DNA from: an uncultured Clostridia bacterium
Lineage (GTDB): Bacteria; Bacillota; Clostridia; HGM11327
Assembly: GCA_945918795.1 (NCBI GenBank)
Contig: CAMEIT010000002.1
Span: 42-64,041, forward strand
Reading direction: 5' to 3'
Length of the DNA stretch: 64,000 nt
The first letter of the stretch is position 1, and each line of letters opens with the position of its first letter. A program made the translations under genes and the position numbers. The notes beneath the pieces were generated by a model that did not search any database, was not told the DNA's origin, and was given only the letters and a program-made list of their open reading frames with translations. This document shows positions 25,177 to 62,179 of the stretch, one piece after another.

Positions 25177-25205
25177 ACTGTTACCTCCTTTGTTTTGACC
25201 TTATA

Positions 25206-26417
25206 TTAAATGTGTGCGAGAGTGTTTGCGTTAATCATTTCAGAGCCTTTTATGACTGTCCCGTCGAGAATATCAAGTCCGCTGCCGAGCACGGCAATGC
25301 CTGCACCGCTTGATACGGGTTCGCCTATGATACATTCCGAGCCGATCTTTGTATCCGTATCGACTATTGAATATTCCACAACGGCTCCGCTTGCAATTTC
25401 AACTCCGCTCATAATAACGCTGTCTTTTACGACTGCTCCCTTTGCGATCTTGACTCCGTTGAAAAGGACGGAGTTTTCAACAGTGCCGTAAATTCTGCAG
25501 CCTTCAGTGACGATTGAATTCTTTATTACCGCGCCTTCACCGACAAAGTGCGGCGGATTTGCATAATTCCTCGAATAAATGCGCCATGAACGGTCATTGA
25601 GTCTGAATGCGGGGGAGTCGCCGAGAAGATCCATATTGGCACTCCACAAGCTGTTTATAGTTCCTACGTCCTTCCAGTACCCGTCAAACGGATAAGCATA
25701 CATTGCCATACCGTCGCCGAGCATATTGGGGATTATGTTTTTGCCGAAATCGTTTGATGAAAGAGGGTCCTCTTCGTCGCGACGGAGATAATCAAGCAAT
25801 ACACTTGTCGTGAATATGTAAATACCCATTGACGCCTTTGTGCTCTTCGGATGCTGCGGCTTTTCTTCAAATTCATATATTTTTTCCGAGCCGTCATCAA
25901 GCGTATTCATTATGCCGAAGCGGCTTGCCTGGTCCATCGGAACGTCTATTACAGCTATCGTGCAGTCGGCGTTTTTCTGCTTGTGGTATTGGAGCATGGC
26001 GTTGTAATTCATTTTATATATGTGGTCGCCCGAAAGTATGAGTACATATTCGGGGCCATAGCTTTCTATGAAGTTGATGTTCTGATATATTGCGTTTGCC
26101 GTACCCTTATACCAATTTGCGCTTTTCTTGCCCTGATAAGGTGGAAGAATCGAAACGCCTCCGTATGTGCGGTCGAGGTCCCAAGGCTGACCGTTGCCTA
26201 TGTATTCGTTAAGCTCGAGAGGCTGATACTGCGTGAGAACGCCTACGGTGTCTATGCCTGAATTAATACAGTTTGAAAGAGGAAAATCGATAATTCTGTA
26301 TTTCCCTCCGAAAGGAACCGCCGGTTTGGCATTTTGCTCTGTGAGCGTATAAAGTCTGCTTCCCTGACCGCCTGCAAGAAGCATTGCGATACATTCTTTT
26401 TTATATTGTCTGCGCAT
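25206..26417 (-). CDS. glgC: Glucose-1-phosphate adenylyltransferase
   Basis: N-terminal [16 protein letters not shown] and [18 protein letters not shown] motifs. AAGGAGG RBS. Confidence 0.85.
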
Positions 26418-32627: not shown

Positions 32628-35600
32628 TTAATTAATGTTCACGACAATTTTGTGCGTTTTGCCGTCATCGATAAGCGTTATTTCTCCGTCGGGGCATTCT
32701 TTGCCGTCAAGTAAACAGCCATTGCCCTCCGAACAGATCACGTCAATAATATATTTTGTTTTTTCGCTTCCGTTTTCGCGGTGATATTCCACTCTGAACG
32801 GAAGCATATCCTTTTCAACGACAGGATTTACTCTTATCTTGTCGTTTTTTATTTTTATACCGAGTATATTTTCAAGTATGGTCTTATACATCCATGCCGC
32901 AGAGCCCGTATACCACGTCCAACCGCCCATGCCCACATTTGTGCTTGCGGAATATACGTCCGCCGCGACAACGTAAGGCTCCACCTTGTAATTTTCAGCC
33001 TGTTCTTTTGTGAGGGCATGATTTACGGGATTCAGCATTTTCAGTATGCGCATTGCTTTTGCCGCTTCGCCGCGCATTGCAAAAGCTGTGACGAGCCATA
33101 TTGCACCGTGTGTATATTGTCCGCCGTTTTCTCTTATGCCGCATTTGTATGCTTTTATATATCCCGGATTGCGGTCGGTATCCTTGAAGGGCGGCCAAAA
33201 CAGCTTTACGATTCCGTTTTTTTCATCAACAAGATATTTTTCGGCAGACTCGAGAGCTTCTTTTATCTGCTCATTCGGAGTTATATCGGCAATTGCCGCC
33301 CATGCTTGCGCAATAATATCTATTTTGCATTCATCACATTCGATACTTCCGATGGGCGCACCGTCGTCATAATATGCGCGCCTGTACCATTTGCCGTCCC
33401 ATGCGCTCTGCTTTATACCTCTTTCAAGCATATTGCAGGCTTCGGCAAGAAATTTCATGTCATCCGTTTTATTGAAATATCCGCACACCTTTATAAAACC
33501 CCGAATTACATAGTGTATAAAGAATGCGAGCCATACGCTTTCTCCCTTGCCGTTTTCTCCGATTTTATCAAAGCCATCGTTCCAGTCGCCCGTTCCTATG
33601 AGAGGAAGTCCGTGAGGACCTATCCGGAGTGATTTTTTGAGAGCAAGCATACAGTGCTCGTATAAGGACGCTGTGTTGTCCGAAAAGTATGCTTTTCCGA
33701 AGCTTGAATTTTTACCCTCTTTTATTTCCTGACCTCTCACAAAAGGCACCTGCTCGTTAAATATTTCCATATCGCCGCTGAATTGTGCGTATTCAGAGCT
33801 TACGTACGGAAGAAACACGAGGTCGTCGGATATTTTTGTTCTTATTCCGTACCCTGTTGCTTCATGCCACCAATGCCTTACGTCGCCCTCCTCAAACTGC
33901 TGACGAGCCGCACGGAGAATATGCGTTTTTGCTTCGTTTTTGTCGCAGTACATGAATGCGAGCACATCCTGAAGCTGGTCGCGGAAGCCGTACGCACCCG
34001 AGCACTGATAAAACGATGTTTTTGCATGATATCTGCATACGTAAGCCTGATACATAAGAAAATTATTGAACAGCATATCAAGAGCCTTGTCGTTTGTCGT
34101 GATCTTAAAAGGCCTCGTAAGAGATGAATAATGCAAAGCTACGTCGTTAAGAAGCTTTTTTGCTTTTTGGGGAGATGAATATTTATTTTTAAGCCTTTGT
34201 ATATCCTGTACGCTTTCAGCTCCGCCTAAAAGCAGCACGACTGTCCCTGTGCAATGAGGCTTTATTTCAACAGATGTTTTCAATACGATGCAGTCTGCAC
34301 AAACGCGCTCGCCCGAAGCTCTCCATGACGAATAGTCAAGAGCTTTTGGGTGAGAAAATCCGCCTGTTCTGCCGAAAAAGTCTGATTTTCTCGATAAAAC
34401 CGCCTCAAGCTCTCCCGTACAGCCTGCAAACATAAATCCGTTTTCGGGAATATTCATGTTTTCGGCGTATACAATGCCGCTTGCTTTGCGTACTGTGAGT
34501 GCGATATTGTCAGGCACGGCAGATACGGCCGGTGAAAGATTGCATTCGGCATAATAATAAACGGACAGCTTTTTGCTTATATCGCTTTCGTTTTTAATTT
34601 CGAGTAAGGAAACCTTAACACTGTCCGACGGCGGTACGAAAACGGTTTTTGTAACGCCAAGCTTATTTGCACTATGGCGGTATACCGCGTACCCCAAGCC
34701 GTATGAAACCGTATATTGTCCCGTACCGTCCACAATTCTTGCAGGATTGATATATTGCATTGTCGAATCGTCCTTGATGTACACAGCCTCGGCAGGAACG
34801 TCGCTTACAGGGTCGTTGCACCATGAGGTGAGCTTGTTTTCTCTGCTGTTTTTATACCACGTATATCCACCCGCGCTTTCCGTGACGACAGTGCCGAAAT
34901 CGGCGTTTGCAATTACATTGCTCCACGGGGCAGGCGTGTTTTGACCGTTGTCAAGCAGTATTGTATATTCGCTTTTTGCTTCGTTGAAGCCGCCGTATCC
35001 GTTGAAGAACACAAGCTTTGGCAATATCTCTTCATTTTTAGAGGTATCTTTCCTTATAAGCTTCGGCAGTATGGCAATATTTTCTTTTTTTATGCACTTG
35101 TCTTCAAAAAATATTTGAGCGTATATCTGCGCCTCGCTTCCGTACACCGAGACAGCCGCGCTTTGAGCTATAACAGCGCACTCGTGAGGATTCAGTTCAC
35201 TCTTCAGAATGAATATTCCACCCTTTTTGCCTATCATATCGCGGCATGACGACGTGGATACTATACTGTACACTTCGTCGTAATTACTTTTGTGGTATCC
35301 GTCGTCACCTGTTATCAATACGAGGTCAGCCTTGACGTTCCCGGAAGATATATATTCATATGCGCTGAGGATAAGCTTCAGTCCGCTTTTTTCCGCTCCC
35401 GATGTTTTGCAGCATATTATAGGCAGGTCACCGGAAATTCCGAACTGCCACAAAAGTGTTTTTGCGCAAGGGACAGCTTTTGTTCTGAATGCTTTTTGAT
35501 AATACAATGAGCTCAATATGCTGTTTGCGAGCCTGAAGCGCTTTGAATCTATCCTCTTGTACTGCATCGATATTTTCGAATGCTCAAATGCAAGCTCAAA

Positions 35601-38600
35601 CGCTCTTGCGCAGTTGTCGGGATTTGCGTAATGCTCGGTGATATTGAGAATATCCGAGTAATTGTCCGAATACGCAAGGATATAGTCTATCTGAGCGCTT
35701 TCGCCCTGAGCAAGACTAAGCTGTACGGCGAGTGACGCGCACGGTGAAAGAGTGCTTCTGCTTAGTGAGTCATAATCAAAGCTTCGGCTGAAAAACGCGG
35801 GATTTGATGATGTTTTGTTACGACCTATAAAGTCGTAGCGTGACGTTATGGGCAAAATAGCTTTGGATTTCGGGCACACAGCCATAACGGCGGCAAACTG
35901 CTTTGATTTTTCGTCCGTTCGCGGTGTTCGCTGAGTTACTATGGCATTGTTATCGCTGAGGTACCTGCTTTCCACAAACATATCCGAGTATGCGGGATGA
36001 GAGTAGCTTTCTTCGAGAGTCTCAAGCGCAGGCTCAAAATAGTCGGCAACTGTAAGCTTTTTTGTTCTGCTGTGAGTGTTTTTTATACGCAGTCTGAATA
36101 CTGCGGCATTTCTGTCGGGGCATACAGTTATATTGAGATTACTTTCAATTCCGCGCACCTTTCCGACAAACGTTATGCTGTCGGGCTTGAACGTCACGCT
36201 GTTGTATGAGCTTTTGCCGTAAACGGGAGAAGGCGTTACCGAATAAGCAAAGCCGCTTTCTTCGTCTTTTATGAAAATAAAATGACCGTACTGTTCTGCA
36301 ATTTCGTCACTTTTCCATTTATTGAGAACTATATCGCCTGCAAAGGCTATGTTTGAACCGGAATTGCTTATGACCATACTCAATGAGCCGTTTGTGAGCA
36401 TTGAGCAGTGGGGATGCTGAGTGATGCCGTTAAAGCTTTCCTCAATGTTTTTTGCATAAATATCGGGAGATTTATCTATTGTCTGTCTGGGGACTGCGTC
36501 AGGCTGAACAACGCTCGGCAGTTTTTCCTGAAGCAGTATTTCGCCTGCTTTTACCTCGGGAGCGCTGTGAAAAAGATTTATCATGCAGTCTTTTTTCAGA
36601 CAGTTTGCGGCGGCAATTAGGCTCATGCCTTCATGATGCGCCATGAATGACTTTATTATATTGTCGGAGTCACCGGACATATCCACAGCCTCGTAAAAAC
36701 CGTATCTCGAGCACATTCCGGATTGCCTGAGCCTTTTCAGATTTTTTGCGGCCTTTTCGGGCGCAAACGGAAGTGCGAGGGCTGTGGCATAAGGTGCCAC
36801 TACATATTCGCCCGTTTTTGTGTGGCGCACAGCCGCATACGGTATTCCGAACGCCTTGTACTGATAGTATTTGTCGCCGTCAAAATGCCAATAGCCCGAT
36901 TCGGAAATACCCCACGGGCGCTTTACCTTCCTTGCATAGCGCATCTGTTCCTCGATGATACCGTCAAATGCGTTGCTCCACAGCGTATTGCCGTAAGTTT
37001 TGAGCAATAAAGCCGGCATTAGATATTCAAACATCGAGCCGCTCCACGATTTTAATATATAACGTCCGCTCCGTTTTACGACTATTCGGGAGAGGCGTTG
37101 CCAATGTTTTATTCCGACCTCGCCCGATATTAACGCATAAAAGCTTGTCTGCCTTGCTTCGGAGGCAAACATATCGTATGCGTATTCGGAGAGCTTTTGC
37201 GCTTCAACGTCAAAGCCTACCGAAAACAAGTCCTTTTTCTCATCGTAAAGCAGTGAGAAATCCATGTTTTTGAGAATCGATTGTACGGACGATATGCTTT
37301 CGTTCAGCTTTATGAGTATTTCGGCGTCGGTAACGGTATCCTTGTATTTGCAAAGCGCCTGCCTTACCGCAACAAGACAGCAGGCAAGATTTCCGTTGTC
37401 TGCGCTCGAGACAAACATAGGGTGGAGGGGCTTTAGCGTTGTTATGTCGTACCAATTGTAAGGATGACCGTTCCACTTTTCGAGCTTGTCAAGCGTGGCA
37501 ATTGATTTTGAAAGCATGAGAACCGCTTCCTTATCGCTTAAAAAGCCAAGCTCTTCTGCCGCGACACAGCCGCAAAGCATCATGCCTATATTTGTAGGCG
37601 ACGTGCGCATGACGGCACCCTTGTACGGCTCCTCCTGGAAATTGTCCGGCGGCAGATAATGCGTTTGCTCCGTACACAGCTCTTTGAAATAATTCCATGC
37701 GCCTTTTGCCGTAAATTCAATGATCTCTTCCGCTTCGGCAGAAAGATTTGTCTCTTTTTCCTTTTTTGCTCGGCTTAATCTGTATACCGCAAACGGCGCA
37801 AGCATGAATGCTCCACCGATGAGCGCCTCAAGAAGTCTTGACGATATGAGAGCCGAAATGAAAAGTGCGACCCCGAACAATGCCGAATATAGCATCACAT
37901 TATAATATGAACGGAGACTGCCTTTGTTTGAGCTTTCCGATTGCATTGCCGTCTGCCATTCGAGGAGCTTTTTCTTTGATTTGAGCCGCGCAATAGTCCT
38001 TATGACGGCATCGATATTGTTGAACGCGCAATCTGCCGCAAGGAGCATATTCAGAATAGCCCTTGTGAAAACATCAAAGCTGATCCTTTTATGCTCGTTT
38101 TGCGTTATTTTAAGCCATAAAACACTCAAAAGCTCAAAAATACACGGCAATACCGACTGTAAACCATACAGTATGACTGCAGACAGGAATATTTCTTTGA
38201 TGAATATGCCTATTATGAGAAGCAGACATATTGCAGGCTCTGTAAGTGTTCTTAAGAGGTTTTCATATATTTTATATTTGGTTGTTCCGTCAAGATAATT
38301 GTATATTCGTTTCCCCGCGCTGTTTCTTGTTATAGGCATAAGATACGGCAAGAGCTGCCAATCGCCGCGCATCCACCTGTGAGCACGCTTCCTGTAAGAA
38401 ATGTAATTTGACGGCACATCGTCAACAAAAACAACGTCCGAAACATACCCCGAGCGAAGATAACCGCCCTCTATCATATCGTGGCTGAGTATGGCATTTT
38501 CGGGGAATCTGCCGTCTATTACGTCACAGAAAACCTTGGAATCGTATATGCCTTTGCCTGCAAAGCTCCCTTTACCGAATATATCCTGATATATTTCGGA

Positions 38601-40517
38601 AACACTGTTTATATACGGCTCGCTTCCGGCGCTCCCTGCCATGAGCATTGAAAAACGTGTTTTCAGTGCCGAAGTGAGGCTTGTATCCATTCTCGGCTGA
38701 AGTATTCCGCGTCCCGATTTTACGGTAGCGGTTGCGGGGTCGAAAACGGGCCTGTTCAGAGGATGATCAGCTGTACCGACGAGAGCAAAAGCACTGCCTA
38801 TGGGCATTTTTGTGTCGGCATCAAGTGTGATGACATATTTCGAGCCTACAATGCTTTCTATTCCCGCACTCGCAAAGCAGAAATCCTTTGTGTTGCCGCT
38901 TTGAAGGAATCTGTTGAACTGAATTACAGCACCGCGCTTGCGCTCCCAGCCGAACCAGCGGTTCTGGCTTTCGTTGAATTGCCTGTCTCTGTGCATATAA
39001 AAGAATATGCGCTTGCCGTATTTGACGTTCAGTGCGTTTATTTTGCTGTTTGTGAATGCTTTTATCTGTTCGTCGTCCACATTTTTGCCGCAGTCGGAAT
39101 CGGCAAAGTCTCCGAGCAGTACGAATGATATATTATCACTTTTGTTGGAGATATAGTTGATCTCCATATTTTCCGCAAGAAGCTCTGCCTGCGCCGTATT
39201 TACGATAAGCGCCGGAGTGACAACGACTGTTGAGCATTCCTTTGGAATGCCCTTTTCAAAATCAAGCCTCAAAAAACGTGTCGGCTTTACAAGCTTTGAG
39301 GCAATGAAATTCACAAGGACAAGCGCCACGGCGCGGCACGGTATATACATTATAAATGCCGAAATGATAAACAGCACCGTGTTTATGCCGCTTTTGCCGA
39401 GCAGGCCGAGCGATATGCCGAATATCATGAATGTGACGGAATAAAGTCCGACGATATACAAAAGCCTTTTGATGAGAGATGTTCCCGAATTGTTTTCAAA
39501 CAGAATTTTGCCTATATGGCACTTTTCTTCATTTGCCTCGGCAAGTATTCTTTCGGCGCACTCGGTTTCGGAAATATGAAGCTTTTTTGCTTTCTGCTTC
39601 AGCTTTTTGCGGTAAATGTTCTTGCTTTCCGAGTCCATTTTTGCATATGTGCCGTCATCTTCCGAGCTGAACACAGCGTCTGCAATGCACACGTTGCCGA
39701 ATATCCTTTCCCAGTCGAACATATTTATCTTCATAAGGCTTGTTATGGAGTTCCTTATTGTGATGACGCAGTTGGATTCTATATGGCGTGAAAATTCGAG
39801 CACTTCGTTTGCCGACATATTTATACGCGAAAGCTCGCTGTCAAGCCAGCGCAAAACGCCTTTGCAGTCAGGCGCATTCTGTATTGCCGTAATGAATGAT
39901 GCAAGCTTTGCCGCATCGTTGACATTGACGAGGCTCTCGAGAGACTCCGCCTTTAAATCGTTTCTTTGGCATACCTCCTCGGCTGTGCGCTTTATATTGC
40001 GTGCGGAAACGAGCGCTTCATAGCGTCTGCAAGCAAGAGTCAATATGTTCCTTGCAAGCGCAAGAGAAAAAGCCGCCGAAAGCGACCATAATTCGTCCAT
40101 AGTCAGCACAAGCTCCTTTTGGTATTGCTCAAGGAACTCGGTGATGCCGTTTTCGGTCACAACTCCGCCGTTGAAATCTATATATTCCACTGCAATCGCG
40201 TATATTCTCGGAAAGCCTTTCATAATCCCGTCCGAAAGCACGGGAATATCGTGCGGTATGTTGTGTATCGATTTTTTTATGCTTTTGAGCTGCATTTTGA
40301 TAGCGTAATAATTATCGACGAACCATTCCGTCGCGGAATCCGGAATTTCCTCATCAAAGCAATGATTTTCCGCTTCTTTGTAATATTCGTCAAATACAGC
40401 CTCCTGCTGTTTGGTAATAACGAAATTACCGAATGGGGTTCTAAATAATCTGTTTGTCACACGCTTGTGCGACACAGCCAACTCTATTGCCAACGACTGT
40501 AATGTGTTTCTGTTCAA
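32628..40517 (-). CDS. Cyclic beta-1,2-glucan synthase-like protein, with N-terminal TM segments, a GT84 glycosyltransferase, a central glucanotransferase region and a C-terminal GH94 phosphorylase domain
   Basis: 2629-aa single ORF. A DxD-type GT region (VITLDADTKMP ... QPRMD) lies between TM clusters. The C-terminus carries a GH94 (cellobiose/chitobiose phosphorylase-like) domain with a GDWNDG motif. TTG start with an AAAGGAA RBS. Confidence 0.65.
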   Translation of the reverse strand: MNRNTLQSLAIELAVSHKRVTNRLFRTPFGNFVITKQQEAVFDEYYKEAENHCFDEEIPDSATEWFVDNYYAIKMQLKSIKKSIHNIPHDIPVLSDGIMKGFPRIYAIAVEYIDFNGGVVTENGITEFLEQYQKELVLTMDELWSLSAAFSLALARNILTLACRRYEALVSARNIKRTAEEVCQRNDLKAESLESLVNVNDAAKLASFITAIQNAPDCKGVLRWLDSELSRINMSANEVLEFSRHIESNCVITIRNSITSLMKINMFDWERIFGNVCIADAVFSSEDDGTYAKMDSESKNIYRKKLKQKAKKLHISETECAERILAEANEEKCHIGKILFENNSGTSLIKRLLYIVGLYSVTFMIFGISLGLLGKSGINTVLFIISAFIMYIPCRAVALVLVNFIASKLVKPTRFLRLDFEKGIPKECSTVVVTPALIVNTAQAELLAENMEINYISNKSDNISFVLLGDFADSDCGKNVDDEQIKAFTNSKINALNVKYGKRIFFYMHRDRQFNESQNRWFGWERKRGAVIQFNRFLQSGNTKDFCFASAGIESIVGSKYVITLDADTKMPIGSAFALVGTADHPLNRPVFDPATATVKSGRGILQPRMDTSLTSALKTRFSMLMAGSAGSEPYINSVSEIYQDIFGKGSFAGKGIYDSKVFCDVIDGRFPENAILSHDMIEGGYLRSGYVSDVVFVDDVPSNYISYRKRAHRWMRGDWQLLPYLMPITRNSAGKRIYNYLDGTTKYKIYENLLRTLTEPAICLLLIIGIFIKEIFLSAVILYGLQSVLPCIFELLSVLWLKITQNEHKRISFDVFTRAILNMLLAADCAFNNIDAVIRTIARLKSKKKLLEWQTAMQSESSNKGSLRSYYNVMLYSALFGVALFISALISSRLLEALIGGAFMLAPFAVYRLSRAKKEKETNLSAEAEEIIEFTAKGAWNYFKELCTEQTHYLPPDNFQEEPYKGAVMRTSPTNIGMMLCGCVAAEELGFLSDKEAVLMLSKSIATLDKLEKWNGHPYNWYDITTLKPLHPMFVSSADNGNLACCLVAVRQALCKYKDTVTDAEILIKLNESISSVQSILKNMDFSLLYDEKKDLFSVGFDVEAQKLSEYAYDMFASEARQTSFYALISGEVGIKHWQRLSRIVVKRSGRYILKSWSGSMFEYLMPALLLKTYGNTLWSNAFDGIIEEQMRYARKVKRPWGISESGYWHFDGDKYYQYKAFGIPYAAVRHTKTGEYVVAPYATALALPFAPEKAAKNLKRLRQSGMCSRYGFYEAVDMSGDSDNIIKSFMAHHEGMSLIAAANCLKKDCMINLFHSAPEVKAGEILLQEKLPSVVQPDAVPRQTIDKSPDIYAKNIEESFNGITQHPHCSMLTNGSLSMVISNSGSNIAFAGDIVLNKWKSDEIAEQYGHFIFIKDEESGFAYSVTPSPVYGKSSYNSVTFKPDSITFVGKVRGIESNLNITVCPDRNAAVFRLRIKNTHSRTKKLTVADYFEPALETLEESYSHPAYSDMFVESRYLSDNNAIVTQRTPRTDEKSKQFAAVMAVCPKSKAILPITSRYDFIGRNKTSSNPAFFSRSFDYDSLSRSTLSPCASLAVQLSLAQGESAQIDYILAYSDNYSDILNITEHYANPDNCARAFELAFEHSKISMQYKRIDSKRFRLANSILSSLYYQKAFRTKAVPCAKTLLWQFGISGDLPIICCKTSGAEKSGLKLILSAYEYISSGNVKADLVLITGDDGYHKSNYDEVYSIVSTSSCRDMIGKKGGIFILKSELNPHECAVIAQSAAVSVYGSEAQIYAQIFFEDKCIKKENIAILPKLIRKDTSKNEEILPKLVFFNGYGGFNEAKSEYTILLDNGQNTPAPWSNVIANADFGTVVTESAGGYTWYKNSRENKLTSWCNDPVSDVPAEAVYIKDDSTMQYINPARIVDGTGQYTVSYGLGYAVYRHSANKLGVTKTVFVPPSDSVKVSLLEIKNESDISKKLSVYYYAECNLSPAVSAVPDNIALTVRKASGIVYAENMNIPENGFMFAGCTGELEAVLSRKSDFFGRTGGFSHPKALDYSSWRASGERVCADCIVLKTSVEIKPHCTGTVVLLLGGAESVQDIQRLKNKYSSPQKAKKLLNDVALHYSSLTRPFKITTNDKALDMLFNNFLMYQAYVCRYHAKTSFYQCSGAYGFRDQLQDVLAFMYCDKNEAKTHILRAARQQFEEGDVRHWWHEATGYGIRTKISDDLVFLPYVSSEYAQFSGDMEIFNEQVPFVRGQEIKEGKNSSFGKAYFSDNTASLYEHCMLALKKSLRIGPHGLPLIGTGDWNDGFDKIGENGKGESVWLAFFIHYVIRGFIKVCGYFNKTDDMKFLAEACNMLERGIKQSAWDGKWYRRAYYDDGAPIGSIECDECKIDIIAQAWAAIADITPNEQIKEALESAEKYLVDEKNGIVKLFWPPFKDTDRNPGYIKAYKCGIRENGGQYTHGAIWLVTAFAMRGEAAKAMRILKMLNPVNHALTKEQAENYKVEPYVVAADVYSASTNVGMGGWTWYTGSAAWMYKTILENILGIKIKNDKIRVNPVVEKDMLPFRVEYHRENGSEKTKYIIDVICSEGNGCLLDGKECPDGEITLIDDGKTHKIVVNIN

Positions 40518-44620: not shown

Positions 44621-44799
44621 AATTATCCACATAAATAATAAATTTACCGTTTAATTATACTACATTTTGCTCAAAAACACAATACGCATCAAAGTGAGGA
44701 AAATGCTTCCTGCAACGAAAATCAATAAAGTAGCAGTCTGCTATTGACAAAACAATTCTAATTTGCTACAATTTATGTAGATTCAAAATGGGGTAGTGT

Positions 44800-47700
44800 A
44801 TGAAAAAAAGATTTTTATTACTGATATTGCCTTTAACGGTATTTTTATGCTTATTTTCGATAAATTCGATGCAGAGCTCATCTGCCGGGACTGTGACGGT
44901 TCAATTTGAATTGGAATCAACGGAGTACGCAAAGCCGGGGGATGAAATTCAACTGAAAATATATGCAAATGTTTCGGGAAGCAAGCTTGCCGCCTTTGAC
45001 TTTGCAATCAATTATAATTCGTCTTTGCTCGAGCCGAAGCATGATGAGTTCGGTGAGTACGCTTATGACGATGACTTTTTCAATTCCCTTGCAAACAGTA
45101 AAAATGTAAGCAGCTATGTTGAAGAAAACGGTACGGGGGTACTGCAAGCTTTATACGCTGCAAGCAGTCTTGAGGCTACATATGTTCCCGAGGGGAAAAC
45201 GCTCTTATATACGTGCTATTTTGTCGTAAAGGCTACTGCATCAGACGGAACGGCAGCTTTCTCGTTGTCGAATCCGGCAGCAAGCTATCGTAGCTCGGGA
45301 GGAAGTCTGACAGCTGTGCCCTCAGGCGACATTACATCGACAACTGCGGCAACGACCGTAAAAAATGAGCTCTCATCGGACAATAATCTCGGCTCGTTAA
45401 CAGTAAGTACGGGCACACTTTCGCCTTCTTTTGACCCCTCTGTAACATCATATACCGTAAATGTGCCGTATGCGACATCGTCAATAACGCTTACCGCTTC
45501 GGCAAATGACGCGCTTTCCACTGTTGTGGGTGCCGGCACAAAGACGCTTGAAGTCGGTGACAATTCTTTTGATATTACGGTTACGGCGCAAAACGGAACA
45601 AAAAAGGTTTATACAGTGACGGTAAACAGAAAAGCCGCTTCAACAGACAACACTTTGCAGTCGTTGACAGTAAGCGAGGGCGCGCTTTCGCCGACATTTG
45701 ATCCGTCTGAAACCGTATATAATGTAACAGTGCCGTACGAGATAACTTCAATAACACTTGCGGCAACGGCAAACGATATACTTTCCACTGTTGCGGGTAC
45801 AGGCACAAAGAACCTTAATATCGGAAATAATTCTTTTGCAATAACGGTCACAGCCGAAAACGGTACTCAAAAGATATACACTGTAAACGTAACAAGAGAA
45901 AAGTGTACCGATAATACTCTGAAGTTGCTTACTGTAAGCGGAGGTACTTTAACTCCGTCATTCAGCCCGTCTGAAACCGTATATAATGTAACAGTGCCGT
46001 ATGAAACAGACAGCATAACTATTACTGCTGAAAAAAATCACGACACGGCAACCGTTACCGGTGCAGGCGTAAAGAGCCTTGCAGTCGGAAGCAATTCTTT
46101 TGAGATAACAGTAACAGCCCAAAACGGTGCACAAAAGAAATACACATTAAATGTTACGAGAGAAAAGTGTGCAGATAACACACTCAAATCGCTTTCGGTA
46201 AGCGGATACCAGCTGGAGCCGTCGTTTGATAAGTCAGTGCTTGAATACGTACTGAGAGTGCCGTATGAGCTTGGCAGTATAACAATATCGGCAGAGAAAA
46301 ATCACAGTACGGCAACACTGACGGGTACGGGAACAATGACACTGCCCGAGTCGGGAAGCACTGTTTTCTCTGTGAAGGTAACAGCACAGAACTCAAATGT
46401 AAAGGAGTATAAAATAACCGTCATCAAAGCGGACCCTTCAACGGATAACACACTGAAGTCGCTTACAACAAACACGGGTACATGGGATAAGGTGTTCAGC
46501 CCGTCTCAGACATCATACGTTGTTACAGTGCCGTATGCCACATCAAGCATAACGCTCTCGGCAACTGTAAATGATGTGCTTTCAACGGCAACAGGCATGG
46601 GCACAAAGACGCTTGTAGTTGGGAACAATACTTTTGAAATAACCGTTACCGCGCAAAGCGGCGATAAAAAGGTATACACCGTTACAGTCAACCGTAAGGC
46701 GGCATCAACGGATAACACGCTCAAATCGCTCACAACGAATACAGGCTCATGGGATAAGGCATTCAACCCGTCCGAAACATCATATAAAGTGACGGTGCCG
46801 TATACGACGTCGGGCATAACGATTACTGCCGCCGTAAATGACGCACTTTCAACTGTTACGGGCGCAGGAAACAAGAGCCTTAATGTAGGTGATAATTCTT
46901 TTGCAATTACGGTAAAGGCTGAAAGCGGCGCTCAAAAGCAATACACTGTAACAGTAACAAGAGAAAAGTGTACGGATAATACACTCAAGTCGCTTTCTGT
47001 AAACGGATATACATTAACTCCGTCATTCAGTCCGTCTGTATCGGAATATAAGCTTAACGTGCCTTATGTGGTAAACAGTATAACTATTTCGGCACAGGCA
47101 AATCATGCCACTGCAACGGTATCGGGCATAGGCACAAAGACGCTTGCTGTCGGAGAGAATACTTTTGCAATAACAGTGACGGCACAAAACGGCACAACAA
47201 AGGTATACACTATTATCGTAACACGCAAAGCGGCATCAACGGATAATAATCTCAAATCATTGACAATAAATACGGGTACGCTTTTGCCGTCATTCAGCCC
47301 GTCTGAAACATCATACGAGGTAACAGTGCCGTATGCCGTATCGAGCATAACGCTCAATGCCGAGGTAAACGATGCACTTTCAACACTTTCGGGCACGGGT
47401 ACGAAAGAGCTTTCAGTCGGGGAAAATGTGTTTGAAATAACGGTTACGGCTCAAAACGGAGCAAAAAAGGTTTATACCGTGACTGTAACGAGGCAAAATG
47501 CTTCAACGGATAATAACTTGAAGTCTCTCACAACGAATACGGGCGAATGGGACAACGCATTTGACCCCGAGCTGACTTCATACATTGTCAGAGTGCCTTA
47601 TGCCGTAACAAGCATAACGCTCAATGCTGTTGTAAACGATGCACTTTCAACACTTTCGGGCGCAGGCGCAAAAGAGCTTTCAGTCGGGGAAAATGTATTT

Positions 47701-50052
47701 GAAATAACGGTTACGTCAGAGGACGGCTCCGATAAAACGTATACCGTAACGGTAAACAGAGACGAACCGTCATCGGATTCGTCGCTCAAATCGATAGCGC
47801 CGTCGGCAGGCACGCTCACACCCGAGTTTGACCCTGAAATAACGGTGTATGATGTGACTGTCGGATATAAGAATGAAACGATTCAGTTTGATTGGGAAAC
47901 GAGCAATCCGGGCGCAAATGTGTTTATAACGGGGGATGATTACCTGGAAGCGGGCGATGTAACGGTATTTACAATAACCGTAATTGCAGAGGACGGCAGC
48001 AGTACATTCTACATAATAAATGTCACCCGTCTCTTGCAGTCAGACGATGCTTCACTGTCCTCGCTTGAGGTTGGCGGCACAAGGCTCAATTTTGACCCCG
48101 AAATAACAGACTATGATGTAGGTGTTCCCGAGGGAATAAAAACAGCAGATATACAATTCACGGTACGTGATGAAAACGCTTCGGCTGTACTTGAGGGAGA
48201 CGTTAATCTTGACAGTGATAAGCCAAACGTGTTCACAATAACCGTTACCGCGGAAAACGGCAACACCAAGGTATATACCATAATAATATCATACAGAGAA
48301 ATTGAATCCGACTCGTCATTGACATCTCTTACCGACAGCACGGGCACCTTGGAGTTTATTCGCGATATAAAGAATTACAGCATAAAAGTGCCGTATTCTA
48401 CCGATGTAATTGAGTTTGAGTACACACTCGGCGGAAAATATGCAACATCCGTACTTGAAGGACCGGAAATGCTTGAGGCAGGAACCGAAAACGAATACAG
48501 ACTGACTGTAATTGCGGAGGATTCTTCGTTTACGGTATATACGATTACGGTATACAGAATGCCTGCTTCCGAGGATTCGGCGCTTAAGTATTTGTCTGTC
48601 AAAGGATATGACATGACGCCTGAGTTTGACCCGGGAGTCACAATATATGATGTGTATATTCCATATTCGGCTGTAACGGCTGTTGTCGAATTTGAGCCGA
48701 ATCATCAGTTTGCAAGCGTTGAGTACAATGCTCCGGATGAGCTTGTTCCGGGTGAAATAAATATATTCACCGTAAGAGTTATTTCCGAAAGCGGAAACGC
48801 AACATTGTATACAATAAGAGTGTTTAGAGACGTTATTTCCGATGATTCATCACTTTCCGAGCTTAAACTCAAAAATGCAGTGCTTGAACCGGAATTTGCA
48901 CCTGACGAGGTAAATTATACGGCGTCTGTACCGTACAGTGTGGCGGTTGCGGAATTTGAATACAAAGCATCTCATATGGGTTCGGATGTTATTATATCGG
49001 GACCTGACGAGCTTGCAGTCGGAGAAAATATTTACAAGATAGTTGTCAAGGCGGAAACGGGCGCACAGACGATATATACGGTTACGATAACAAGGGCTGA
49101 AATGGAAAGCGATTCAACGCTCAAAACGCTTGTTCCGAGCGTGGGCGAGATCGAATTCGATCCTCTTGTTACGGAATACAATATTACACTTGACTGCTTT
49201 ACCGAATTAATAACATTCGAGTATGAGGCAAGCGGTATGTATGCGAGCGTGACATTTAACGGCAATGAAAATCTTACACAGGGAGAAACGAACGTTTTTG
49301 TCATAAGCGTAATAGCTGAGGACGGCTCTCGGACTGATTACACTGTAAATGTGTTCAGGGAGATGATTTCAAGCGACAGCTCTGCCGCAAAGATAACGGT
49401 TATGGGCAAGGAGCTTGACTTGTCATCCGGCAGGAGAGAGTTCTTGATAGATGTTTCGTACGATACCGAAAGGGCAGAGGTTGTTGCGTGGGCAAATGAC
49501 AGCAAGTCAAGCGTTGAAATAAAAAGAGAACGCGAAACACTTGCTATCGGAGAAAACGTAATCACTGTAATAATTACGGCTCAGGACAAGAGCGTTACCG
49601 AATATAAAATAAAAATATTGCGTGATGCCGGTTCAAGCAATGCGTACCTTGAAAAGCTTGAGCCTGAAAACGGAAGCTTCAACGAAGCCTTTGAGGCAAA
49701 CAAGCTCAATTACACTATGACGGTAGGCCAGGAAATAGATAAGCTTGTATTGATTATAAAGCCTGCTCATGAAAAAGCTGTTTTTGAAGTATCGGATACA
49801 AAGCTTGAGTTTGGTGAGAATGTAATTACAATAACGGTAACGTCCGAAAACGGGAATACGGTACTGTACAAGGTACGTGTTATGAGACAGAAGGATTCAT
49901 TCTGGAAAATGATTACGAGTAACACGATATTTACGGTAGGCGGATTCGGCATAACGATATTCATGTTTGTTGCGGCGGCGCTTGCAGTTATCGTGATATG
50001 CGTTGTGATACTTATAATAGTAAAGGTACGTTCGTCAAAGGATAGGAAATAA
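44800..50052 (+). CDS. Large cell-surface protein with a signal peptide, an N-terminal cohesin-like domain, ~17 tandem cadherin-like beta-sandwich repeats and a C-terminal TM anchor
   Basis: 1750 aa. Signal peptide MKKRFLLLILPLTVFLCLFS. The N-terminal domain is cohesin-like (AAFDFAINYNSSLLEP). ~90-aa units recur with ~270-bp periodicity (LSSLTVSTGTLSPSFDPSVTSYTVNVPYATSSITLTA...YTVTVNR). C-terminal TM FGITIFMFVAAALAVIVICVVILII followed by a KVRSSKDRK tail. Confidence 0.7.
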   Translation: MKKRFLLLILPLTVFLCLFSINSMQSSSAGTVTVQFELESTEYAKPGDEIQLKIYANVSGSKLAAFDFAINYNSSLLEPKHDEFGEYAYDDDFFNSLANSKNVSSYVEENGTGVLQALYAASSLEATYVPEGKTLLYTCYFVVKATASDGTAAFSLSNPAASYRSSGGSLTAVPSGDITSTTAATTVKNELSSDNNLGSLTVSTGTLSPSFDPSVTSYTVNVPYATSSITLTASANDALSTVVGAGTKTLEVGDNSFDITVTAQNGTKKVYTVTVNRKAASTDNTLQSLTVSEGALSPTFDPSETVYNVTVPYEITSITLAATANDILSTVAGTGTKNLNIGNNSFAITVTAENGTQKIYTVNVTREKCTDNTLKLLTVSGGTLTPSFSPSETVYNVTVPYETDSITITAEKNHDTATVTGAGVKSLAVGSNSFEITVTAQNGAQKKYTLNVTREKCADNTLKSLSVSGYQLEPSFDKSVLEYVLRVPYELGSITISAEKNHSTATLTGTGTMTLPESGSTVFSVKVTAQNSNVKEYKITVIKADPSTDNTLKSLTTNTGTWDKVFSPSQTSYVVTVPYATSSITLSATVNDVLSTATGMGTKTLVVGNNTFEITVTAQSGDKKVYTVTVNRKAASTDNTLKSLTTNTGSWDKAFNPSETSYKVTVPYTTSGITITAAVNDALSTVTGAGNKSLNVGDNSFAITVKAESGAQKQYTVTVTREKCTDNTLKSLSVNGYTLTPSFSPSVSEYKLNVPYVVNSITISAQANHATATVSGIGTKTLAVGENTFAITVTAQNGTTKVYTIIVTRKAASTDNNLKSLTINTGTLLPSFSPSETSYEVTVPYAVSSITLNAEVNDALSTLSGTGTKELSVGENVFEITVTAQNGAKKVYTVTVTRQNASTDNNLKSLTTNTGEWDNAFDPELTSYIVRVPYAVTSITLNAVVNDALSTLSGAGAKELSVGENVFEITVTSEDGSDKTYTVTVNRDEPSSDSSLKSIAPSAGTLTPEFDPEITVYDVTVGYKNETIQFDWETSNPGANVFITGDDYLEAGDVTVFTITVIAEDGSSTFYIINVTRLLQSDDASLSSLEVGGTRLNFDPEITDYDVGVPEGIKTADIQFTVRDENASAVLEGDVNLDSDKPNVFTITVTAENGNTKVYTIIISYREIESDSSLTSLTDSTGTLEFIRDIKNYSIKVPYSTDVIEFEYTLGGKYATSVLEGPEMLEAGTENEYRLTVIAEDSSFTVYTITVYRMPASEDSALKYLSVKGYDMTPEFDPGVTIYDVYIPYSAVTAVVEFEPNHQFASVEYNAPDELVPGEINIFTVRVISESGNATLYTIRVFRDVISDDSSLSELKLKNAVLEPEFAPDEVNYTASVPYSVAVAEFEYKASHMGSDVIISGPDELAVGENIYKIVVKAETGAQTIYTVTITRAEMESDSTLKTLVPSVGEIEFDPLVTEYNITLDCFTELITFEYEASGMYASVTFNGNENLTQGETNVFVISVIAEDGSRTDYTVNVFREMISSDSSAAKITVMGKELDLSSGRREFLIDVSYDTERAEVVAWANDSKSSVEIKRERETLAIGENVITVIITAQDKSVTEYKIKILRDAGSSNAYLEKLEPENGSFNEAFEANKLNYTMTVGQEIDKLVLIIKPAHEKAVFEVSDTKLEFGENVITITVTSENGNTVLYKVRVMRQKDSFWKMITSNTIFTVGGFGITIFMFVAAALAVIVICVVILIIVKVRSSKDRK

Positions 50053-50078: not shown

Positions 50079-52019
50079 ATGGATATTGAATTGATGTCTG
50101 AGGCAAGTGTGAGATATTATTACTGCATGAATACGCAGTTAAAAGATCATATCTACAAGAGAGCACAGAATTATTTTGACGCGGCGAAAAAAACACGTTC
50201 CGAAATATATGTAAAAGAACAGCTTGAGGAATACAACAGGAAGCAGCGTGAGAAATTTATAAACGGTATAGGCGGTATAGCGTGGGACAGAGCGCCTCTT
50301 GATGCAAAGATCACGTCCGTTAAAGAATACGAGCATTATAATATAGAGAATATAATTTTCTGCTCACGAAAAGATACGTATGTAACCGGCTCGATGTATA
50401 TTCCGCACGGTTTGACAAAGCCTACGGGAGCGGTTCTCTTCCTGCACGGTCATTCTGCCGACACGCGCCATTATCCGGCGTATCAGTCTGCCTGCGACAC
50501 TCTTGCAAGAGCGGGACTTATAGTTTTTGCAATAGACCCCGTCGGTCAGGGCGAAAGGGTAAGCTACTTTGACAGCGAGAAAGGCGAATACATAATTCCG
50601 CCTTGCACGGATGACCATGATTGCGCGGGTGTGCCTGCCGTTGCAACGGGAAAATTTATACAGCGTTATTTCTTAAGCGATGAGATGCGCGCTGTTGATT
50701 ATATGCTTACAAGACCCGAAATCGATCCCAAGAAAATAGGCGTTACGGGAAATTCGGGCGGAGGAACACAGACAATGGCAATGATGGCGGCTGATGACAG
50801 AATAGCTGCCGCGGCGCCTGCAACGTTTGTAACGAGCAGAGAGGCGTATATGTATTCGGGAGAGCCGCAGGACTCGGAGCAGATATGGTACGGAATAACC
50901 GAAGCCGGATACGACCACATAAATCCGATAATGAATTTTGCACCGAAGCCGCTTGCGATACTCACGGTTAATTACGATTTTTTTGCATTGGAGGGCACAA
51001 GAGATACCGTTATTGAAGCACAAAGATTTTATGATATGTATGGAAAACGCGAGAATCTTTATTGGTTCCGCGATGACGCACTGCATGAATATACGCCGTA
51101 TCTCCAAAGGTGTGCTGCAAAATTCTTTGCAAAGCATCTGCTCGGCAAGGACGTGGAAATAGATAACAGTCTGTATGAAATGAAGCCTATTGAGGTTTTC
51201 TACAACACAAAGTCGGGCAGAGTAAGAGGCGAGATAGAGGGCGCGAGATTCTTATACGATGAGAATAACGATGTGGCACGGAATCAATTTGATGAGAGAC
51301 ATTCGCTTCCGGGAGCGGCAAGGCTTATTGAGGCTGAGGCATGGCTCAGAGAAAAGGTGTATGCAAACAGGATTCCGTATGACTTCTTCATAAGAAAGCT
51401 CGAAACATACAAAACCGAAAAATATATAACCGCACCTATATTCTGGCATTCTCAGAAGGATCTTTTTAATTTTGCTTTCCTGATACGCGCGACTGAAAAT
51501 GAATCGAAGCGCCTGCCCGTAATAGTTGCCGTTTGGGAGGACGGAACGAAAAAAATCGCCGAACATGAGGAATGGATAGCACAAAAGTGCTCGGAAGGCT
51601 ACGAGGTAATGGTGCTTGACGTGAGCGGAGTAGGCTATATTCAGGCGGACAAAATTAATACCCATGATATAAAGGCAAAATACGGAACAATGTACAAGCT
51701 CTGCTCGGATCTTTTGTATATGGGCGACAGCATGACGGCACTGAGAAGCTATGATGTTCTGCGCGCCGTCGATATGCTTAATGAGGTTTACGGACTCGAA
51801 TACGGTGAAATCACGATTTACTGCGAGAGCAAATACGGAGTATACGGAATGATTGCGGCGTTCCTGAATAGGGAAACGGGCGTTATTTATGGGGACGACT
51901 TGCTTGAAAACGTATTCGAGCAGGAAATAAAGCCTTTTGCAAAGGCATATTATGACGATCTTGCCGTATTGATGCCGGGAATGCTCAAATATTTTGACTA
52001 TGACGAGCTGAAACGGTAA
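50079..52019 (+). CDS. Alpha/beta-hydrolase (acetyl-xylan-esterase/AXE1-like N-terminal domain), 646 aa
   Basis: GxSxG nucleophile elbow GVTGNSGGG, and a dienelactone/AXE1-like region after LFLHGHSAD. Confidence 0.5.
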   Translation: MDIELMSEASVRYYYCMNTQLKDHIYKRAQNYFDAAKKTRSEIYVKEQLEEYNRKQREKFINGIGGIAWDRAPLDAKITSVKEYEHYNIENIIFCSRKDTYVTGSMYIPHGLTKPTGAVLFLHGHSADTRHYPAYQSACDTLARAGLIVFAIDPVGQGERVSYFDSEKGEYIIPPCTDDHDCAGVPAVATGKFIQRYFLSDEMRAVDYMLTRPEIDPKKIGVTGNSGGGTQTMAMMAADDRIAAAAPATFVTSREAYMYSGEPQDSEQIWYGITEAGYDHINPIMNFAPKPLAILTVNYDFFALEGTRDTVIEAQRFYDMYGKRENLYWFRDDALHEYTPYLQRCAAKFFAKHLLGKDVEIDNSLYEMKPIEVFYNTKSGRVRGEIEGARFLYDENNDVARNQFDERHSLPGAARLIEAEAWLREKVYANRIPYDFFIRKLETYKTEKYITAPIFWHSQKDLFNFAFLIRATENESKRLPVIVAVWEDGTKKIAEHEEWIAQKCSEGYEVMVLDVSGVGYIQADKINTHDIKAKYGTMYKLCSDLLYMGDSMTALRSYDVLRAVDMLNEVYGLEYGEITIYCESKYGVYGMIAAFLNRETGVIYGDDLLENVFEQEIKPFAKAYYDDLAVLMPGMLKYFDYDELKR

Positions 52020-54991: not shown

Positions 54992-55774
54992 TTATTCGTT
55001 ATTCTGCGGAATTTTTTTGTATTTCCCGTTGCCGATAAACTCTATTACACCCTTATCGCGCAAAATCTGTAATTGTTGCCTTATTTTAGGTCGAATGTTA
55101 TTATTGTCGGGATGCTTTTCGGCAAGCCGATTTTCAAAACGATACACATCCCCAAGTTCAAATTCATGAGGCTCTATTGAATTTACACAATTGAGAATAT
55201 CGAGCAGCCACCCCCTTTGGGCAACATTATCTGTTTTTAATTTATTTGCCAGCTGCATTTTGAATGTAATATTCTTTATGCTTTCAACCTGACCGTTGTT
55301 TATGATGCGTATTCTTCCTTGCTCGGGAATTTTGCCTATAAGTATATTACAGCCGACCCAGCCTGAGCGTTTTGCCGTTGAAGATAACGGATTCCTTTTT
55401 TCAATAATATCGGGAACGAAAAAATATTTCGGGACGATCCAGAAATCAAGCACCGATAATTCTTTTGCCGAATAGCTCATCAAAAAAAGATCGGGATTTT
55501 CATTGCTGTTTATGCGCTCTATCATTGAGGAATATGCCCCGTCTGTTATTTTGACGCCTAATTTGCCTGTTTTGCTTTTCAGCTCATATTGATTATTGCA
55601 ACATGGACAAAAGAAATCCGCAACAGGACTGTTGTTTTTGAAGTGCTCCAATGTTATATTGCCGCATCTTGGGCAGAACATATTCTTGCCTACCCAGGCT
55701 TCAGTCAAAACCCTTGCCTGCTGTGATTTCGAATTGTAATTATATGTTGAATTTGAATAAAGCTTAAGATCCAT
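54992..55774 (-). CDS. DpnI-like (Dam-replacing/DRP family) methyl-directed Type IIM restriction endonuclease
   Basis: Layout is a PD-(D/E)XK core D-x10-E-L-K (PVADFFCPCCNNQYELKSK) next to a Cys4 cluster (CPRCGN...CPCC), plus a C-terminal winged-helix segment IRPKIRQQLQILRDKGVIEF. This is the same arrangement as the DpnI catalytic Asp/Glu/Lys triad and its m6A-recognition wH domain. Start taken at MDLKLYSNS (ATG), which has a GGAG RBS. Confidence 0.6.
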   Translation of the reverse strand: MDLKLYSNSTYNYNSKSQQARVLTEAWVGKNMFCPRCGNITLEHFKNNSPVADFFCPCCNNQYELKSKTGKLGVKITDGAYSSMIERINSNENPDLFLMSYSAKELSVLDFWIVPKYFFVPDIIEKRNPLSSTAKRSGWVGCNILIGKIPEQGRIRIINNGQVESIKNITFKMQLANKLKTDNVAQRGWLLDILNCVNSIEPHEFELGDVYRFENRLAEKHPDNNNIRPKIRQQLQILRDKGVIEFIGNGKYKKIPQNNE

Positions 55775-55837
55775 AAGGCACAACTCCGATTCTTTGTTAC
55801 GGTAAGGCTTATTGTTTTTCAATCACCGCCGGGCATA

Positions 55838-60550: not shown

Positions 60551-62179
60551 TTATAAGGTTTCTCTTACTGTTATTCCGCACTCGAACTCGATTTCGATTT
60601 CTTTGTTGGACAGTACGGTGATTTTCCGCACAAGGCTTTTGAACATCACTCGGTCGAACTCTTCAAGTATCTTCCCTGTCTGTAGCAGTTTGGTCACTTC
60701 TTCGATTCGATACGATGCGAGTTGGACTTTTCCTTGCTCGGACAGTATCTCTTCTTTTCTCATAAGCAGTTGGTCAATTTTCATTCCGACCTGCTGACTT
60801 TGATGTTCGTACTCTTTATCGGTAATCTCCCCGTTGTTCCTTATCGTCAGCAGTTCCATCATCTGCTCTTGTAGTTTTTCTATCTCGGCACTCACTTCAT
60901 TTATCGCTGTCGCACAAGAGTCCGTTATTTCGCTCACGATTGCACTTTGCAGTTTTTCGAGTATTTGTTCCTTGTCTCCTATAAGTTCGTTCAGCGCCCT
61001 TACAAACGCTTTTTCAAGGGCTTCTTCCTTGATAGGTCGACTCTTGCAGTATTCCGCGCCCGTGTTTTCGTGTCTTTTGCACACCCATATGTAGTACTTC
61101 TTATATTTGTTGTACTGTTGGTGTCTTCGGTAGGTTTCTCCGCATTCGCCGCATACTATCATTCCACTGAACGGGTATTTCCCTGAAAACTTTCCGCATC
61201 CCGTTTCGCCTGTGCTTCGTAGCGACTGTCTGTTTTGGAACTCTTGCTGTACCATCTCGAATGTTTCTTTCGATATGATAGCCGCGTGACTATCTTCCAC
61301 ATACCAACTCTGTGCGAACCCTTCGTTTTTAATTCGTCTTGGGGATAGGAAGTCAGGAAGGTATGTTTTTTGCAGGTGGCAATCGCCTTTGTACTTCTCA
61401 TTTTGCAGTATCGACTTCACCGTTGACGGATGCCATGTTTCTCTGCCCGATGGTGATGCGATACCATCTCGCTCAAGCCCTTCGGCGATTTCTTTCAGGC
61501 TTTTGCCGTCAAGGAACTCCGCATATATCCTTCTAACCGTTATTGCCTCTTCTGGCACTATTTTTAGCACCGTCCCCTTCTTGTCTCTCGTATATCCAAG
61601 GAAGTGTTTCGTGTTAAGTATTACCTTACCCTCTTGGAACTTTTTCTTGACGCTCCACCTAATATTATTGGATATGCTCCGACTCTCTTCTTCTGCAAGG
61701 CTTGCCATAATCGTAAGGACGAACTCGCTCCGCTCTTGTAGCGTATCGAGGTTTTCTTTCTCGAATATGATTCCGATACCATCTGCTTTCAGTTTTCTTG
61801 CGGTCTGTACGCAGTCGAGTGTGTTTCTTGCGAATCGGCTGACCGATTTCGTAATTATAAGGTCTATCTTTCCGTCTTCGCAGTCCTTTATCATTCGTTT
61901 GAACTGCACTCGCTTGGTATTCTTCCCGCTCAAGCCGGGGTCGGCATAAATGTCAACCATCGTCCAATCGTCATGGCTTGCTATGAGTTTGGTGAAGTGG
62001 TCAACCTGTGCCTCGTAACTGCTTTCCTGTTCTTCGTGGTCGGTCGACACTCGTGCGTATGCAGCCACTCGTATTTTTGGCTTTTGTCCCATCGCTACCG
62101 ACATAGGGTCAAGTCGTTCGGCCCTCGTCTTCGCGGGGATAATCGTAATTTTGGGTTTAGTGTTTGCACAGTTTTCCAT
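60551..62179 (-). CDS. Large serine recombinase (resolvase/invertase N-terminal domain, recombinase domain, zinc ribbon and coiled-coil)
   Basis: IRVAAYARVSTDHEEQ catalytic-Ser motif, C-terminal Cys cluster (CGECG...C) and a coiled-coil region. Start placed at MENCANT, which has an AGGAAA RBS. It overlaps the upstream recombinase stop by ~23 nt. Confidence 0.75.
   Translation of the reverse strand: MENCANTKPKITIIPAKTRAERLDPMSVAMGQKPKIRVAAYARVSTDHEEQESSYEAQVDHFTKLIASHDDWTMVDIYADPGLSGKNTKRVQFKRMIKDCEDGKIDLIITKSVSRFARNTLDCVQTARKLKADGIGIIFEKENLDTLQERSEFVLTIMASLAEEESRSISNNIRWSVKKKFQEGKVILNTKHFLGYTRDKKGTVLKIVPEEAITVRRIYAEFLDGKSLKEIAEGLERDGIASPSGRETWHPSTVKSILQNEKYKGDCHLQKTYLPDFLSPRRIKNEGFAQSWYVEDSHAAIISKETFEMVQQEFQNRQSLRSTGETGCGKFSGKYPFSGMIVCGECGETYRRHQQYNKYKKYYIWVCKRHENTGAEYCKSRPIKEEALEKAFVRALNELIGDKEQILEKLQSAIVSEITDSCATAINEVSAEIEKLQEQMMELLTIRNNGEITDKEYEHQSQQVGMKIDQLLMRKEEILSEQGKVQLASYRIEEVTKLLQTGKILEEFDRVMFKSLVRKITVLSNKEIEIEFECGITVRETL

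Follow-up and report, generated by a model that had tools for sequence, protein, structure and literature searches.

Much work has gone into the cohesin-dockerin systems of cellulolytic specialists, whereas those of the uncultured Clostridia that predominate in the human gut have been little explored. In OlpA and OlpC of C. thermocellum, ScaE of R. flavefaciens and ScaD of P. cellulosolvens, a secreted protein uses its cohesin to fix a dockerin-bearing component at the cell surface. The known anchoring scaffoldins are held there by SLH modules or through sortase and an LPXTG motif (PMC12484212), and ScaD also combines its cohesin with a cadherin module (PMC5590126). Here we analyzed a 64,000-nucleotide stretch of DNA from an uncultured Clostridia bacterium (contig CAMEIT010000002.1; hereafter, the window), in which a single open reading frame (ORF) at 44800..50052 of the + strand, stop codon included, encodes a surface protein of 1750 aa with one N-terminal cohesin, a stalk of 17 Cadherin-like repeats and, at the C-terminal end, a single membrane helix. 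We lean, with somewhat better than even confidence, toward the interpretation that this protein is a monovalent anchoring scaffoldin, or display stalk, whose cohesin would capture a dockerin-bearing partner, as in the systems named above. It differs from these systems, however, in several respects. Judged by what defines the Olp, ScaE and ScaD type, namely a cohesin together with an SLH or LPXTG anchor, the cohesin is present and the wall anchor is not, as no LPXTG motif was found upstream of the C-terminal helix, Pfam returned no SLH match in the protein, and a transmembrane helix with a basic tail is seen instead. Moreover, its spacer, with 17 Cadherin-like repeats, is far longer, and its gene lies outside a sca cluster, with no dockerin found in 64 kb. 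The cohesins of C. perfringens NagJ/GH84C and GH33 are likewise gut-Clostridia cohesins that operate outside cellulose degradation. These, however, are modules of glycosidase toxins that are secreted and form assemblies with toxins bearing dockerins, whereas the cohesin of the window is the sole non-repeat domain of a membrane-anchored stalk protein.

The N-terminal domain (aa ~30-190; 44887..45369, + strand) is assigned to the cohesins, Pfam family PF00963, and is predicted to adopt the cohesin fold. When aa 1-196 were scanned alone, PF00963 matched aa 34-165 with 38.8 bits (E 1.3e-9), well over its gathering threshold of 24.1, and the same family is among the precomputed matches of homologues P0001-P0005. 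A profile of the N-terminal domain built from 11 family members found 5nrk as its best match in the PDB (E 5.4e-9), and the first 17 rows of that search were all cohesins, down to E 2e-2. The AlphaFold2 (AF2) model of the domain (pLDDT 84.9, pTM 0.82), which has a low-confidence loop at model residues 62-73 (protein aa ~90-101), retrieved by Foldseek only cohesins of the PDB at ranks 1 to 42, belonging to types I, II and III and in many cases solved with dockerins, with E values down to 1.3e-10 and a target-normalised TM score of up to 0.84. The cohesins of OlpA (3ul4), OlpC (4dh2) and ScaE (2zf9) are found among the structural matches, the non-cellulosomal cohesins of C. perfringens are among the 42 best, and 2jh2, 2o4e, 2ozn, 2w1n and 2vo8, of this non-cellulosomal kind, are among the best sequence and structure matches. 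Bona fide scaffoldins are among the closest sequence relatives beyond the family itself, one layout having 7 cohesins and a dockerin and another a cohesin-Fn3-CBM3-cohesin arrangement. Within the 1750-aa protein itself, a family hidden Markov model (HMM) detected no second cohesin, and Pfam scans detected neither a carbohydrate-binding module (CBM) nor a dockerin. The idea that the domain might be a stalk domain of the CLIPPER/isopeptide kind (9ifr) was rejected, as this structure appears at Foldseek rank 43, far below the 42 cohesins. A word-index search with the N-terminal 196 aa (44800-45387) returned 0 matches even though a 98%-identical protein is present in the same database, which reflects a limit of the tool and not biology.

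The stalk is made of repeats of the Cadherin-like family PF12733, which matched the whole protein above its gathering score, with 521.7 bits (E 2.9e-160) in 16 stretches, while the last (17th) repeat scored 32.3 bits when scanned alone. Our self-built HMM resolved 17 repeats over aa 196-1701, each 85-88 aa long and joined by linkers of 1-3 residues. The repeat period is 88-90 aa, or 264-270 bp, and the ~267-bp periodicity is real. An initial annotation of this locus, made from the sequence alone, had described a cohesin-like module followed by about seventeen cadherin-like repeats with a ~270-bp periodicity, and had named as damaging to it an N-terminal domain that fails to model as a cohesin together with repeats that match another Ig-like family; a cohesin model was in fact obtained for the domain and PF12733 was matched by the repeats, so that both calls stand. 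Pairwise protein identity between repeats reaches 73% at most, with a median of 34%, and is unevenly distributed along the stalk, being 35-73% among the distal repeats R1-R9 (aa 193-991; 45376..47772, + strand) and 17-46% among the proximal repeats R10-R17 (aa 992-1701; 47773..49902, + strand). Repeats R10-R17 pair position-for-position with R10-R17 of homologue P0003 (57% identity), and mostly also with those of P0006; R1-R9 all find their best match in the same few P0003 repeats, nos. 1, 2, 4 and 5. R1-R9 are the evolutionarily dynamic part of the array, with the signature of lineage-specific duplication or homogenisation.

Kyte-Doolittle hydropathy, applied with a 19-residue threshold, identified only two hydrophobic segments in the protein, at aa 1-26 and aa ~1708-1748. 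The first belongs to a signal peptide (aa 1-29, MKKRFLLLILPLTVFLCLFSINSMQSSSA, followed by G; 44800..44886, + strand) with the n-h-c layout of Sec substrates, in which MKKR is followed by LLLILPLTVFLCLF and by a putative cleavage site between SSA and G, and sites of the AXA type occur at the equivalent place in family members. The second corresponds to a transmembrane helix (aa ~1717-1741; 49948..50022, + strand; Kyte-Doolittle maximum 3.57), which is followed by the basic tail KVRSSKDRK (aa 1742-1750; 50023..50049, + strand), predicted to be cytoplasmic, K/R-rich tails being kept across the family. The signal peptide, the single C-terminal helix and its basic tail had all been anticipated in the initial annotation and are confirmed here. 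Between the last repeat and the helix lies a juxtamembrane segment (aa 1702-1716, WKMITSNTIFTVGGF; 49903..49947, + strand), which in an alignment of the C-termini of 10 family members follows a consensus of roughly W-[YK]-K-x-x-x-[NH]-T-x-[FL]-[ST]-[IV]-G-x-F. Such an arrangement would make this a type-I (N-out, C-in) membrane protein. We envision that the protein is exported by the Sec pathway, that its signal peptide is cleaved, and that the C-terminal helix and basic tail then hold it in the cytoplasmic membrane, with the 17 directly abutting beta-sandwich repeats forming a rod that would span the Gram-positive wall and place the cohesin at the tip, beyond it. An Ig-like domain is ~4 nm long, and on this basis the rod could measure about 60-70 nm. 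The cohesin would most likely capture one dockerin-bearing protein of the same cell, whether an enzyme, a binding protein or an adaptor. The Pfam note on PF12733 suggests carbohydrate binding, and the stalk repeats may add weak multivalent binding of this kind.

Relatives built in the same way were recovered with identities of 38-98%, among them P0001 (98% identity, 1750 aa). The shared layout, which includes a signal peptide, an N-terminal cohesin, 12-17 PF12733 repeats, the juxtamembrane motif, a transmembrane helix and a K/R tail, is found in P0001-P0006, P0008, P0016, P0017, P0020, P0029 and P0032. A short version of 521 aa, at locus L016, combines its cohesin with 2 repeats detected by Pfam, a linker rich in Pro, Ser and Thr, a transmembrane helix and a charged tail. 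These relatives come from human-gut metagenomes and from metagenome-assembled genomes labelled only "Clostridia bacterium", and the cohesin-stalk protein delineates a small family of uncultured (human-gut) Clostridia with 2-17 repeats. A whole-protein scan of the GTDB genome representatives, among which the species of the window is not included, found no relative. The exact protein of the window has no record in public assemblies even though neighboring genes are on record, a discrepancy likely due to an allelic difference or a different start call.

A second gene accompanies this family. The cohesin-stalk gene is followed, after a gap of 26 nt, by a co-oriented gene (50079..52019, + strand) for a 646-aa alpha/beta-hydrolase that is similar to carbohydrate esterases and devoid of a signal peptide. 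This second gene is preceded by a ribosome-binding site of its own, AGGTGAGG, and the intergenic stretch showed no terminator; the two genes probably form an operon. The pair recurs in the window, in L001/L002, L004, L005 and L016, that is, in 5 contexts whose flanks are otherwise unrelated, with hydrolase copies of 646-650 aa at L001 8459-10399, L004 9523-11463, L005 13486-15429 and L016 6996-8948. Hydrolase identity among paired loci drops to 49%, and the hydrolase (64-78% identity) is much more conserved than the surface protein (38-57%). Ser226 (in GNSGGG), Asp300 and His336 are invariant across 30 hydrolase homologues, and the AF2 model of the enzyme (pLDDT 95.4) has the BT1017 methylesterase (6goc) as its top fold match, with BF1801, BVU_4111, and the CE15 glucuronoyl and CE7 acetyl esterases also among the best. 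We read the product as a putative intracellular carbohydrate esterase. The linkage of the two genes hints at a common function in the use of plant glycans, and the esterase pairing may point to the harvest of esterified plant polysaccharides of the pectin or glucuronoxylan type. We also considered the esterase as the docked partner itself, or as an enzyme sorting the C-terminal signal, and rejected both ideas, as it has no signal peptide, transmembrane segment or dockerin and has the fold of a carbohydrate esterase. Similarly discarded was a 1126-aa ORF upstream of the hydrolase at L017, which is a shadow ORF in high-GC DNA.

Several of our results weigh against an anchoring scaffoldin and need to be acknowledged. 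The paired calcium-binding loops typical of dockerins are absent from all six frames of the 64 kb searched by regular expression, and Pfam scans of nearly all window ORFs of at least 200 aa returned no dockerin, second cohesin, SLH module or sortase; the search for dockerin-bearing partners advised in the initial annotation, in other words, yielded none within the window. The whole-protein Pfam scan does not list Cohesin at E <= 0.01, and the precomputed Pfam matches of two relatives omit it as well. The domain is in fact divergent, with 8 phmmer matches at E <= 1e-3 in an exhaustive search of 1.84 billion representatives, and because of this divergence its ligand specificity could have drifted. 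As for the gene pair, its occurrence is not universal, in that 5 other hydrolase loci (45-62% identity) lack the pairing and the cohesin-family locus L003 has no hydrolase, and the esterase cannot be the docked partner because it lacks a signal peptide.

The main rival to the anchoring scaffoldin is a fibrillar adhesin with no dockerin partner, in which the cohesin-fold tip, the repeats, or both, would bind a different ligand such as plant fibre, mucin, a host glycan or another cell. We regard this as possible, though clearly less probable than dockerin capture. A surface anchor, a long Ig-like stalk and a single distal domain do recall the architecture of this class (PMC8286594, PMC9210967), and fibrillar adhesins and Periscope proteins share with the window protein an anchor, a tandem Ig-like rod and a distal N-terminal functional domain, as well as a repeat number that differs between relatives, which in our family ranges from 2 to 17. 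The lack of a dockerin in the 64-kb window and the divergence of the cohesin both speak for an adhesin, as do the employment of a cohesin-like fold as an adhesin stalk domain in CLIPPER (9ifr, the structure at Foldseek rank 43) and the human-gut origin of, at least, the sister species. Nonetheless, dockerin-binding cohesins account for every one of the 42 best structural matches and for all of the significant sequence matches in the PDB, and every experimentally characterized cohesin, to our knowledge, binds either a dockerin or an X-dockerin. Classical fibrillar adhesins, furthermore, have LPXTG anchors and recognized adhesive domains, whereas the distal domain here is a cohesin, and neither the cohesin nor PF12733 is among the adhesive or stalk domains that the main text of two papers on these proteins describes (PMC8286594, PMC9210967). 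Periscope proteins, in turn, are characterized by near-identical DNA repeats and by length variation between strains, while the DNA repeats of the window gene are at most 72% identical and its length is fixed in 14 alleles.

On the whole, the cohesin-stalk protein departs rather little from surface-anchoring proteins already known, its anchor being unusual and its stalk unusually long. More ambitiously, and in our opinion doubtfully, these proteins of uncultured human-gut Clostridia might represent a distinct and so far undescribed class of membrane-anchored receptors with a single cohesin as the tip of a stalk, inherited together with an intracellular carbohydrate esterase and providing a minimal, non-cellulosomal cohesin-dockerin display system for the harvest of esterified plant glycans. 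In an exotic version of this receptor class, attachment between species would come about through capture, by the cohesin, of giant cadherin-like proteins that other gut bacteria make and that end in a dockerin.

Such giants do exist. P0010, P0011 and P0044 are 2160-2320 aa long and combine 17-22 PF12733 repeats with a type-I dockerin at the C-terminus. They share with the window protein both the repeat family and the cohesin-dockerin module system; they differ, however, in having a dockerin in place of the cohesin, no transmembrane anchor, and low-GC genomes unrelated to the window. That the cohesin captures cadherin-like giants of this kind from other bacteria, leading to inter-species fibrils or co-aggregation, is in our view improbable, even if they are common in metagenomes and give the best matches of the window protein outside its family. 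Their genomes, with a GC content of 29-32%, correlate with the window at 0.2-0.3 in tetranucleotide usage and hence belong to different organisms, their gene contexts are different, their similarity is confined to the repeat domain, and nothing points to co-occurrence or to matching specificity. The same GC content and tetranucleotide correlation, along with unrelated gene contexts, led us to reject the giants as partners encoded by the same genome. Regardless of any relation to the window protein, it is worth recording that two metagenome contigs of 29-32% GC (L012 1-17922 and L014 351-7313) carry clusters of giant Cadherin-like repeat proteins, including one of >4131 aa with ALK_LTK_GRD and Big_2 domains, others of 2165-2320 aa with a type-I dockerin at the C-terminus and a 470-aa cadherin-like protein, and that these clusters look like a separate, dockerin-tipped fibril system.

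A different concern is whether the gene is real as written, given that long tandem arrays can be collapsed or expanded during assembly. The initial annotation described many of the repeats as near-identical, or near-perfect, at the DNA level, and considered the locus prone to copy-number variation and mis-assembly. Neither statement holds here. Pairwise DNA identity between repeats has a maximum of 72% and a median of 46%, the longest exact stretch shared between repeats is 35 nt (at 45703 and 45967), and Tandem Repeats Finder reported no array even at its lowest threshold. All 14 full-length alleles found in public assemblies (98%-identity cluster), in addition, encode exactly 1750 aa and are collinear with the window protein, from which they differ by 23-156 substitutions and 0 indels. 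Because these alleles have the same length and no indels, the 17-repeat structure is reproducible across independent assemblies and strains. The reading frame of the window gene is also intact throughout. What can be said for an artefact comes mostly from the sister species, where a 17-repeat gene is found in L001/L002 and a 16-repeat gene in L007 and P0004. L001 3189-8423 and L007 3189-8156 are identical in DNA sequence except for a clean deletion of 267 bp, which has a 32-nt identical junction and falls between two neighboring distal repeats with 87% identity to each other; L002 (17 repeats) and L007 (16 repeats), moreover, derive from the same run (ERR321620) processed with different assembly pipelines. 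This difference is either a within-sample polymorphism or an assembler artefact. Some short-read contigs of the window species also stop within the cohesin-stalk gene. We nonetheless consider it very unlikely that the 17-repeat array of the window is an artefact, with copies collapsed or expanded; the concern is reasonable in principle and not applicable to this locus, where the repeats are divergent and the alleles fixed in length. Annotators need not mark the array as a collapse risk, and it can be trusted as assembled.

Scarcely tenable, finally, is a primary, enzyme-integrating scaffoldin of a cellulolytic bacterium, as, in spite of the presence of a cohesin and of GH3, GH78-like, GH94-like and esterase genes in the window, the protein has a single cohesin, no CBM and no dockerin, an architecture that already refutes this idea, and no sca-type cluster or dockerin-bearing enzymes are found nearby in the 64-kb window. 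Where the initial annotation spoke of a "cellulosome-type scaffold or adhesin", the part implying a primary scaffoldin has thus to be abandoned, while a monovalent anchoring scaffoldin, or an adhesin, fits.

The rest of the locus is unremarkable for the most part. Upstream of the cohesin-stalk gene, a promoter-like site of the sigma-70 type with an extended -10 element (TTGACA-17-TGcTACAAT; 44744..44772, + strand; 11 of 12 consensus matches, TG present) ends 27 nt 5' of the ATG; it is a consensus match only, and such sites are no more numerous in the region than in shuffled sequence. ORFs on the opposite strand within 44800..50052 do not exceed 129 aa and are read as shadows of the repeat. The coding sequence has a GC content of 44.2%, close to the 43.6% of the whole window, so that a foreign origin of the gene is not suggested. 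We also entertained, and rejected, elevated diversification of the surface gene, as its 2.4% nucleotide divergence from L009 is at the level of its upstream neighbors; the 78 synonymous and 36 nonsynonymous codon changes seen in the same comparison are unremarkable.

The gene content of the window is otherwise housekeeping and sugar metabolism, including pyruvate kinase, IMPDH, glycogen genes, a GH3 enzyme, a GH78-like rhamnosidase and a GH94-type protein of 2629 aa. This last ORF (32628-40517, - strand) has DUF3131, glucoamylase-like, GH94 supersandwich and GH94 catalytic domains, a layout like that of a cyclic beta-1,2-glucan synthase or of a large glycan phosphorylase, which we would consider unusual in the genome of a gut Clostridia species. 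Further upstream (19660-26417, - strand), a glycogen phosphorylase, a starch/glycogen synthase and two nucleotidyl transferases of the GlgC/GlgD type form an ordinary glycogen metabolism cluster, which supports a saccharolytic lifestyle. Among the housekeeping genes downstream (54992-55822, - strand) is a DpnI-like methyl-directed restriction endonuclease of the Dam-replacing family, which the other strains (L009-L011) have as well. At the right end of the window (60551-63635, - strand) are two adjacent large serine recombinases of 559 and 492 aa, encoded by overlapping ORFs and each with Resolvase, Recombinase and Zn_ribbon_recom domains; a mobile element or prophage integrated here may have its boundary at this point.

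Returning to the cohesin-stalk family, what emerges from our analysis is a recurrent design in which one cohesin is carried on a long, length-stable Ig-like stalk, a membrane helix replaces the SLH modules or sortase signals of known anchoring scaffoldins, and the gene is linked to that of a carbohydrate esterase, itself conserved. Should the cohesin indeed bind a dockerin protein, this design would provide a simple and testable model of how these bacteria may place a single enzyme or binding protein beyond the cell wall.

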